Shown: one piece after another, positions 30,983 to 31,669 of the stretch | Position numbering within the stretch: position 1 is the stretch's first letter | Layout of the letters: each line of letters opens with the position of its first letter | Origin: Escherichia coli | Lineage (GTDB): Bacteria > Pseudomonadota > Gammaproteobacteria > Enterobacterales > Enterobacteriaceae | Reading direction: 5' to 3' (one strand) | DNA length: 64,000 nt | NCBI RefSeq assembly: GCF_013315695.1 | Contig: NZ_CP054353.1 | Notes under the pieces: generated by a model | Seen by the model: only the letters and a program-made list of their open reading frames with translations | Database searches by the model: none | Told to the model about the DNA's origin: nothing | Position numbers and translations under genes: made by a program

Positions 30983-31669
30983 TTATTGATGGGCAGAAAG
31001 TATCATTTTCATTACTTCTTCTTGATATTCGTCCAAATAATCTGGGTCGATAGCTGCGACCAGTCGTATCAAATTAGTGTTATCCAGTAGAGTCATGAAA
31101 ATAGCATGTCTTATTTTGCCATCACTCATTGTTTGAATTCCTTCCTGATAAGCGCAGGCAAATCCCTTAACATCACAAACATGCATTTCTGCAGTTCCGT
31201 TTTGAGTCGCGGTAAGTTCCTCGATTGAATGCACACCGAGTTCATTTTGTGAGAAGGCAACAATAACTAAAATAGCATGGGCATCCCGAGTCACCAGGAT
31301 TGGTCCTTGTTTTACTATATTGGCAACCCACTGTTTGCTCGGAACTGTGACGGTGATACCTGGCCCCGGGAAAGTATAATCCCATGTGCTGTGTCGTTCC
31401 CACACTGTATAGCTGCTATAGATAAGAAATAATCCCATTAACCAACAAGTGCCGCGAATAAAGCTGTGGCTGCTTCTTTTTTTTATCGTTATACAGATGA
31501 TTGTGGCGATAATAAATGATAAGGCAAGTGGGTTAAAAAATACGTTAGCAAAATATAAAATCATTTCACCCGTGTTGCCAGACAAAAGGAATTTGTAGCG
31601 GAAATGGTTAACGACTATAAGTAATAAATATATAAATAAAAGAATAATATTCTGCATGAATACGTCCAT
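30983..31669 (-). CDS. Uncharacterized membrane protein, paralog B (same architecture as paralog A)
   Basis: 228-aa ORF; hydrophobic N-terminus (IILLFIYLLLIVV, ALSFIIATIICITI, CWLMGLFLIY); C-terminal domain alignable to paralog A at roughly 30 percent identity by eye; strongly AT-rich. Confidence 0.6.
   Translation of the reverse strand: MDVFMQNIILLFIYLLLIVVNHFRYKFLLSGNTGEMILYFANVFFNPLALSFIIATIICITIKKRSSHSFIRGTCWLMGLFLIYSSYTVWERHSTWDYTFPGPGITVTVPSKQWVANIVKQGPILVTRDAHAILVIVAFSQNELGVHSIEELTATQNGTAEMHVCDVKGFACAYQEGIQTMSDGKIRHAIFMTLLDNTNLIRLVAAIDPDYLDEYQEEVMKMILSAHQ

Follow-up and report, generated by a model that had tools for sequence, protein, structure and literature searches.

In the 64,000-nucleotide (nt) stretch of Escherichia coli DNA that we analyzed (contig NZ_CP054353.1 of RefSeq assembly GCF_013315695.1; hereafter, the window), the gene neighborhood corresponds to that of E. 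coli glpK-glpF-zapB / rraA-menA-hslU, and two paralogous minus-strand genes, here termed B and A, are flanked by zapB (plus strand, ending at position 30195) and rraA (minus strand, 31717-32202). The rraA coding sequence specifies 161 amino acids (aa), according to both the list of open reading frames (ORFs) and the RefSeq annotation of identical or near-identical genomes, and it closes with a TAA stop codon at 31719-31717, as read from the sequence. It is followed by B (30983-31657, minus strand; 224 aa), as delimited by its ORF, by alignments and by the Prokaryotic Genome Annotation Pipeline (PGAP); by a 32-nt spacer (30951-30982, minus strand) in which the Shine-Dalgarno sequence of A, UAAGGGA, can be read; and by A itself (30234-30950, minus strand; 238 aa), delimited by the ORF list and alignments. 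The B and A proteins share 29% identity (BLASTP, E = 1e-33). In a first-pass annotation, made from the sequence alone, the gap between rraA and B was held to leave almost no room for a promoter, so that the pair would have to be transcribed by read-through from rraA/menA, from a promoter inside rraA, or, as silenced AT-rich DNA, only poorly. Here we describe the leader that occupies this gap, and we consider how B and A are likely to be expressed.

In strain Sakai, B and A carry the locus tags ECs4855 and ECs4854, respectively. In EDL933, B is EDL933_RS25985, and the tags Z5475 (B) and Z5474 (A) were deduced from those of the flanking genes, which are listed as Z5476 (rraA) and Z5473 (zapB) in PMC3210124. 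Searching the literature by locus tag, we found no mention of Z5474/Z5475 or ECs4854/ECs4855.

The length of the leader depends on where B begins. Its longest ORF opens at ATG 31669 (228 aa), and for that ORF the gap of 47 nt given by the first-pass annotation is correct (31670-31716). The start codon of B is, however, probably ATG 31657 (MQNI...), which makes the leader 59 nt rather than 47, in view of the following features: (i) the BLASTP alignment of the two paralogs opens at B residue 5 (counted from ATG 31669), facing A residue 1; (ii) seven family members align starting at the methionine of 31657; (iii) PGAP places the start at 31657 in three genomes; (iv) the sole Shine-Dalgarno-like element is GGA at 31667-31665, downstream of ATG 31669 and 7 nt ahead of 31657; and (v) the counterpart of ATG 31669 is AAG in locus L004 and ACG in locus L023. 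Against moving the start, four of six lineages keep ATG 31669 in frame; our overall conclusion is unaffected by the choice between 31669 and 31657. As regards A, PGAP and RefSeq start the gene at ATG 30860 (208 aa), 30 codons inside the start at 30950. The latter is preceded by UAAGGGA, and the 30 additional N-terminal residues are conserved in paralogs and orthologues; a start at 30860 would delete the first transmembrane helix of A, which is conserved throughout both. Judged by these alignments, the PGAP start for A is too short, and the conserved start is 30950. Two start-codon calls are thereby corrected, namely that of the first-pass annotation for B and that of PGAP for A.

The leader (31658-31716, minus strand), running from the rraA stop codon to the B start codon, is not peculiar to the window. 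A B-type gene begins 59 to 60 nt after the rraA stop codon in E. coli, Escherichia albertii (L005) and Escherichia sp. MOD1-EC7003 (L008), and the same spacing was found at L004 (83% DNA identity to E. coli), L014 and L023/L024, in Superficieibacter sp. (L025) and in Pseudocitrobacter cyperus (L026), the genera beyond Escherichia having been reached through protein searches; this length is conserved in at least six lineages. Within the leader lies an intrinsic-terminator-like element, AAAAGGGGAAUUAAAUUCCCCUUUUUU (31674-31700, minus strand), which was recovered both by a terminator scan and, as inverted repeat I5, by a repeat search that scored it as a perfect 12-nt inverted repeat. It comprises an A-tract (31700-31697), a stem-loop (31696-31680) and a U6 tract (31679-31674). 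More specifically, the stem GGGGAAU/AUUCCCC encloses a UAA loop and is followed by UUUUUUAU (together 31696-31672, minus strand), which is the sequence pattern of an intrinsic terminator. The element takes up 27 of the 47 nt between the rraA stop codon and ATG 31669, in agreement with the earlier remark that most of the gap is terminator hairpin. The stem alone was computed at -8.4 kcal/mol, or -13.2 kcal/mol including its A:U extension; corresponding stems in the other lineages range from -5.3 to -11.4 kcal/mol, and at one stem position an A-U pair of the window corresponds to G-C in L004. Compared with the rraA terminator of K-12 (-11.0 kcal/mol) or with the zapB terminator (-15.4 kcal/mol), the stem in the window is weaker, consistent with a prediction of partial termination.

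The sequence of the leader is conserved as well. The stretch that starts with the hairpin and ends at the ATG hardly varies among genera, although their B proteins share only 39-53% identity; a run of 23 nt (CCCTTTTTTATACATGGACGTAT), for example, is the same in the window as in Superficieibacter. In all comparisons made, the leader was more conserved than the third-codon positions of rraA, with identities to the window of 0.93 (leader) versus 0.85 (rraA third-codon positions) for E. albertii, 0.75 versus 0.69 for L004, 0.73 versus 0.64 for L023, and 0.68 versus 0.63 for L025. An Rfam scan of 30100-32400 at E up to 1 returned chance-level matches only (sraA, SraG and snoZ162; E 0.24-0.69, far below the gathering cutoffs), and a metagenome scan with the leader pattern CCCCTTTTTTATAYAWGGATGTAT gave 0 matches. 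At L027/L028 (1-2069), the gene order is rraA, a B remnant, an A-type gene and a B-type gene. The B-type gene of L027, which does not adjoin rraA, keeps a degenerate hairpin, a T-tract and a ATATATGGACATAT leader; since this relocated gene retains a copy of the leader, the leader travels with B.

Minimum-free-energy folds of RNA extending past the U-tract place the terminator hairpin within a second, outer helix. The 5' strand of this predicted helix, GUACCUGCCAUG (31705-31716, minus strand), directly follows the rraA stop codon, and the 3' strand (31660-31670, minus strand) is the translation initiation region of B, including GGA 31667-31665 and ATG 31669. In the window, GUAC...CCAUG (31716-31705) pairs with CAUGG.CGUAU (31670-31660). 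The helix is predicted to cover the Shine-Dalgarno sequence in the window, in the EDL933-type leader, and in E. albertii, L008, L004 and L014. In L004, ACAUCCU pairs with AAGGAUGU as a perfect anti-Shine-Dalgarno sequence, and in L014, AUACAUC pairs with GAUGUAU. In L023 and L026, the pairing is in another register (UCGCAUAU/AUAUGCGA) and covers the AUG itself. The 16 nt that follow the rraA stop codon diverge between lineages, yet their complementarity to the B initiation region is kept: three helix pairs carry compensatory double changes, and at 31713-31663 the window has C-G, EDL933 has U.G and L008 has U-A. Two marks of an occluding helix were found, i.e., predicted pairing of the Shine-Dalgarno sequence or AUG to the segment after the stop codon, and compensatory evolution. 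Where B is degenerate, so is the 3' strand of the helix, whereas the terminator is retained.

The two G residues of GGA have pairing probabilities of 0.95-0.99, and its A of 0.40. Opening the B initiation region (31668-31652) was computed to cost 10.2 kcal/mol on read-through RNA; this cost fell to 5.7 kcal/mol when 31731-31707 was held single-stranded, mimicking a ribosome on the rraA stop codon, and it was 5.3 kcal/mol on RNAs starting at 31689 or 31678. We compared the duplex energy with that of 2000 shuffles of the 5' strand in five lineages, and the pairing was significant in three of them (p = 0.0025 for L004, 0.0135 for L014 and 0.009 for L023). When strands were exchanged among six lineages (swap test), the cognate combinations of 5' and 3' strand ranked 4th of 720 permutations. 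Given the small number of independent lineages, these comparisons lend the predicted helix moderate support. A natural variant of the L023 leader is found at L024 (2442-2500), where the U-tract is broken, with CCCCTTTATCATAC in place of CCCCTTTTTTATAC; the extended helix of L024 was computed at -27.5 kcal/mol versus -21.3 kcal/mol for L023. By its sequence, the interruption of the U-tract should weaken termination.

As to where transcription may begin, the rraA promoter, TTGCCA-N18-TATACT (32235-32264, minus strand), received the top matrix score (13.1) and was also recovered by a promoter scan. Zhao et al. in 2006 reportedly assigned rraA a stationary-phase promoter of its own, located in the menA-rraA spacer. 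By Cappable-seq, the start of rraA in EDL933 is given as 26 nt before its ATG (PMC10469882), which maps to window position 32228, 7 nt past the -10 hexamer. Two candidate sigma70-like promoters on the minus strand involve the rraA-B gap. One of them, CTGCCA-N17-TAAATT (31684-31712; matrix score 10.47), has its -10 hexamer inside the hairpin loop and a predicted start near 31678-31676. The other, TTGAAT-N17-TAAAAG (31696-31724; matrix score 9.89), has its -35 hexamer in the last rraA codons and a -10 hexamer without the final T; it would also be a candidate for the promoter inside rraA that the first-pass annotation had proposed. Both motifs match 8 of 12 consensus positions, under the promoter-scan threshold of 9 of 12. 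Sites with such scores occur at a background of 0.3-0.5 per kb per strand, and those scoring at least 10.47 at 0.3 per kb per strand in the window. The CTGCCA hexamer is not conserved outside Escherichia. At the equivalent position in L004, L023, L025 and L026 we found TGGATA-N18-TAAAAT/TATGAT/TATATT, ending 44-45 nt before the B ATG. We did not accept TGGATA-N18-TAWNAT as proof of a promoter, because it can equally be read as rraA codons together with the A-rich complement of the U-tract; it is weighed below among the rivals. The gap is thus as tight as first described, but to exclude a promoter on that ground was too strong, since two sigma70-like motifs (10.5 and 9.9) overlap the terminator.

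The published Cappable-seq data also place a transcription start inside B, which the first-pass annotation had missed and which could feed A. In Table S5 (sheet 2) of PMC10469882, the entry d_gTSS 5007791(-) is assigned to EDL933_RS25985 for stationary-phase M9 only. This position corresponds to window 31545, an A, located 112 nt inside B and 7 nt past the -10 hexamer of CTGGCA-N18-TATATT (31581-31552), a promoter also recovered by the promoter scan (promoter and start together, 31545-31581, minus strand). Between EDL933 and the window, the hexamers and the start base are identical and the 18-nt spacer differs at one base; across Escherichia the hexamers are conserved, in L004 they are so only in part, and other genera do not share them. 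A truncated B protein was considered as the product of this transcript and set aside. Since the next in-frame ATG (31438) has no Shine-Dalgarno sequence, the RNA starting at the tabulated 31545 more likely serves A, or is noise. Moreover, Z5474 and Z5475 are absent from the 144 EDL933 genes listed with zero reads across 11 RNA-seq conditions (PMC4048457, Table S3).

When 5426 complete E. coli genomes were considered, 679 (about one in eight) carried the pair, always on the chromosome; carriers include O157:H7 EDL933 and Sakai, as well as O7:K1 CE10. The family of the pair is small: an exhaustive profile search retrieved 34 cluster representatives among 1.84 billion proteins, and a scan of genome contigs with two peptide patterns gave matches only in Escherichia species. 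In E. albertii, L004 and L025, the B-type gene is followed by one of A type. For the window versus E. albertii, synonymous divergence (dS) was 0.264 (B), 0.281 (A) and 0.265 (rraA), and the ratio of nonsynonymous to synonymous divergence (dN/dS) was 0.19, 0.14 and 0.03, respectively, with a range of 0.14-0.22 for A. Because the dS of the pair equals that of rraA and dN/dS is low, the pair has diverged in step with its flanks, under purifying selection. The same values (dN/dS of 0.14-0.19 together with a dS matching that of rraA) indicate that the B and A proteins are made and maintained. In the window, a repeat search revealed no direct repeats flanking the pair, and mobility genes are absent as well.

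Both genes are missing from K-12, in which the zapB-rraA spacer measures 84 bp (L003 3762-3845), is unrelated in sequence to the ends of the pair, and holds a single bidirectional terminator, whereas the window has two separate terminators; likewise, the stop codons of zapB and rraA are both TGA in K-12 and both TAA in the window. From these sequences, the K-12 state is best read as a loss of the pair. Variants with A only were also observed, in the E. albertii type strain, Escherichia whittamii, an E. coli strain and Escherichia sp. E1V33 (A-only loci: L009, L010, L011 and L012, at about 2740-3000 in each; L015; L019). They share a layout of rraA, the same terminator, a remnant of the first B codons in which ATG has become ATA, an AT-rich spacer of ~225 nt, and A; the final 16 nt of the B-A spacer are kept even here. 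The occurrence of A-only variants in several Escherichia indicates that B was lost repeatedly, with the terminator and A being kept. Other contents of the rraA-zapB interval were noted as well. At L004 (7497-8072), a small ORF and a Y1-transposase gene (PF01797, of the type associated with repetitive extragenic palindromes) lie between the A-type gene and zapB, and at L017 a Lipoprotein_9 gene and a different rraA terminator fill the interval. As far as these sequences go, the rraA-zapB interval appears to be a variable spot across genera.

Since the outer helix would form only on RNA that has passed the U-tract, and since it is maintained, we infer that read-through transcripts exist and matter; we likewise infer that the helix would control the translation of B. 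The reading we favor is that B, followed by A, forms the far end of the menA-rraA unit, reached by read-through of a modest terminator and gated in translation by the helix, and we judge its prospects of being right or wrong to be evenly balanced. RNA polymerase would initiate at the rraA promoter (start 32228) or further upstream, much of it would stop at the modest intrinsic terminator of the leader, and the read-through fraction would carry B and A. On this RNA, the 12 nt after the rraA stop codon would pair with the Shine-Dalgarno/AUG region of B, and the resulting helix would enclose the terminator hairpin and hide the ribosome-binding site of B. A ribosome terminating at the rraA stop codon would cover the 5' strand and thereby free the B site, so that translation of B would be coupled to that of rraA and kept low. 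A, in turn, would rely on its own strong Shine-Dalgarno sequence, and it could also be transcribed from the promoter inside B (start 31545). Among the three routes that the first-pass annotation had offered, read-through from rraA/menA is the best supported, indirectly, by the conserved spacing, the modest stem and the co-varying helix.

Several points weigh against the read-through reading. The U6 tract and the GC-rich base of the stem may terminate efficiently, leaving little read-through; the sigma70-like motifs overlap the terminator; the shuffle p value is borderline in the window (0.055) and nonsignificant in L025 (0.165); the helix sequences are AU-rich and related by descent, and the tests are not fully independent; we found no transcript directly shown to run from rraA into B; for B, the Cappable-seq entries covered are those of starts downstream of start codons, so that one upstream of B may exist; and neither protein is among the EDL933 proteome entries listed in PMC3210124, which is a weak negative. 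Some of this would also fit a helix without a translational role, in which case B would be cotranscribed by read-through and would start independently at 31657 or 31669, and the pairing would be incidental to AU-rich RNA, would simply lengthen the terminator stem, or would serve RNase III or RNA stability. AU-rich flanks pair readily; the shuffle p values for the window and L025 are those just cited; even in the absence of the 5' strand, a local hairpin costs 5.3 kcal/mol to open; and ATG 31669 with GAY-GTA-TWY codons is kept in four of six lineages, possibly as a coding constraint. We nonetheless consider a helix without a role somewhat unlikely, given that the swap test ranks the cognate pairings so high, that the register of L023/L026 differs yet covers the start codon, that the C-G, U.G and U-A states within Escherichia are compensatory, and that the 3' strand decays where B is lost. 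It is also possible, and in our judgment unlikely, that a promoter dedicated to B overlaps the terminator, namely CTGCCA-N17-TAAATT (start at ~31677) or TTGAAT-N17-TAAAAG (start at ~31689). Such RNAs would be without the 5' strand of the helix and would lack the terminator's 5' arm, wholly or in part, thus escaping both termination and occlusion, and read-through RNA would be translationally silent for B, with the helix acting as an insulator. The matrix scores of the two motifs and the low background of sites scoring at least 10.47 are in line with this possibility, as are the equivalent-position motif in L004, L023, L025 and L026, the lower opening cost of the initiation region on short RNAs (5.3 versus 10.2 kcal/mol), and the leader and degenerate hairpin retained by the L027 B-type gene away from rraA. 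Nevertheless, neither motif was listed by the promoter scan, TAAAAG is without the critical final T, the predicted start of CTGCCA-N17-TAAATT falls in a C/T run with no purine, and the hairpin would still fold in an RNA starting just before the G-run, ending it after ~25 nt. We favor read-through over a promoter in the gap because the gap motifs are weak, because the -35 hexamer of the Escherichia motif is not conserved beyond that genus, and because the motif of the other genera can be otherwise explained: TGGATA corresponds to rraA Leu-Asp-Ile codons, and the -10-like hexamers may come from the A-rich complement of the U-tract.

Two further explanations were considered. Were the pair horizontally acquired AT-rich DNA that is essentially silent (e.g., through H-NS), the gap would be a landing accident. 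The guanine-plus-cytosine (GC) content is indeed lower than that of the flanks, at 30-47% across the pair versus 50-58% in rraA and menA; the distribution among complete E. coli genomes is patchy; Pfam, NCBIfam and PADLOC gave no matches; the tabulated start inside B is weak and confined to one condition; and the proteins are not among the proteome entries listed. Such an origin is nevertheless disfavored by the B-type gene standing at the same 59-60 nt after rraA in other genera, by a dS equal to that of rraA with low dN/dS, by leader conservation beyond the neutral expectation, by the lack of flanking repeats and mobility genes in the window, by the absence of both genes from the zero-read RNA-seq list, and by the K-12 state, which looks like a loss, its 84-bp spacer being unrelated. 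We therefore regard the silenced islet suggested by the first-pass annotation as very improbable. At the other extreme, the leader could be a dedicated regulatory switch made up of the 5' strand, terminator, U-tract and ribosome-binding site, or could hide a promoter in the terminator, with the pair tied to RraA/RNase E physiology in stationary phase; this we consider improbable. If such a switch does exist, synthesis of the membrane pair would require that polymerase read through and that the RNase E inhibitor RraA be undergoing translation, and if the version with a hidden promoter holds, only promoter-proximal RNAs would be translatable.

The proteins themselves are predicted to be membrane anchored. 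An AlphaFold2 model of B, built on a 22-sequence alignment (mean predicted local distance difference test score [pLDDT], 88.5), contains three transmembrane helices (residues 2-26, 29-58 and 63-89) and a beta-rich C-terminal domain, and for both paralogs three transmembrane helices and a PsbP/Mog1-like domain are predicted. In a Foldseek search of the PDB with the C-terminal domain of B, PsbP was the top match (E = 3e-6 to 1e-5; template modeling score [TM-score] to the target, 0.5-0.6), and weaker matches were Tsi3 (a type VI immunity protein), DcrB, EagT6 and MTC28. The modeled domain thus resembles PsbP, DcrB, Tsi3 and EagT6 in fold; unlike them, B has three N-terminal transmembrane helices and conserved cysteines. 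Pfam (E up to 1), NCBIfam and PADLOC scans of both proteins returned chance-level or unrelated matches only, and the PsbP family profile (PF01789) gave no sequence match for B. In the model, then, the B domain has a PsbP/Mog1-like fold without membership in the sequence family. In a 7-sequence alignment of Escherichia and L004 proteins, Cys55, Cys71, Cys161, Cys168, His18, His159 and a C-x-YQ motif are invariant; across 22 relatives, only Cys168 is invariant and Cys161 is nearly so. The basic loop KKRSSHSFIR after helix 2 (by the positive-inside rule), together with the conserved cysteines of the domain, suggests that the C-terminal domain of B faces the periplasm.

At the far end of the pair, the zapB terminator (30209-30235, plus strand) was identified by the terminator scan as a stem at 30209-30228 followed by a T-tract (30230-30235). 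The stop codon of A (30236-30234) shares the last two T of this tract, so that A does end inside it, as the first-pass annotation had noted. Just ahead of this terminator, the zapB stop codon is spanned by an inverted repeat of 14 nt (GCATGGAAGAGGTT / AATCTCTTCCATGC, 93% complementary; 30179-30207, plus strand). On the minus strand, neither hairpin (the 30179-30207 repeat or the zapB terminator) is followed by a U-tract, and the B/A transcripts accordingly have no obvious intrinsic terminator on this side; by sequence, they may extend antisense into zapB.

The arrangement can be compared with known systems. In the rpsU-dnaG-rpoD operon, the internal intrinsic terminator T1, located between rpsU and dnaG, throttles expression of the distal genes. 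The leader described here resembles T1 in that a stem-loop and U-tract lie between codirectional genes with no clear promoter between them, in which case the distal genes would rely on partial read-through, and it differs in that the distal genes encode uncharacterized membrane proteins, that read-through is a proposal, and that the terminator would be nested in an occluding helix. Translational coupling through a long-range helix has been proven genetically for rpmI-rplT (E. coli infC operon) and for the coat and replicase genes of phage MS2. As in these two systems, the downstream initiation region is predicted to pair with an upstream segment that a ribosome would unwind; unlike in them, where that strand lies inside the upstream coding sequence, the strand here directly follows the stop codon and the helix, which is a prediction, spans a terminator. 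Relative to menA-rraA of K-12, the rraA promoter is alike (TTGCCA-N18-TATACT, with the start 26-28 nt before the ATG); in contrast to the window, K-12 has no B/A pair, and its rraA terminator is different, stronger, bidirectional and shared with zapB.

Overall, the locus has an ordinary operon architecture with a previously undescribed, conserved 59-nt leader, and its novelty is modest. Rather than as a foreign islet, the locus is to be read as an ancestral module attached to rraA that K-12-like lineages have lost, and its leader may be a new case, in nature, of a translational-coupling helix that encloses a terminator.

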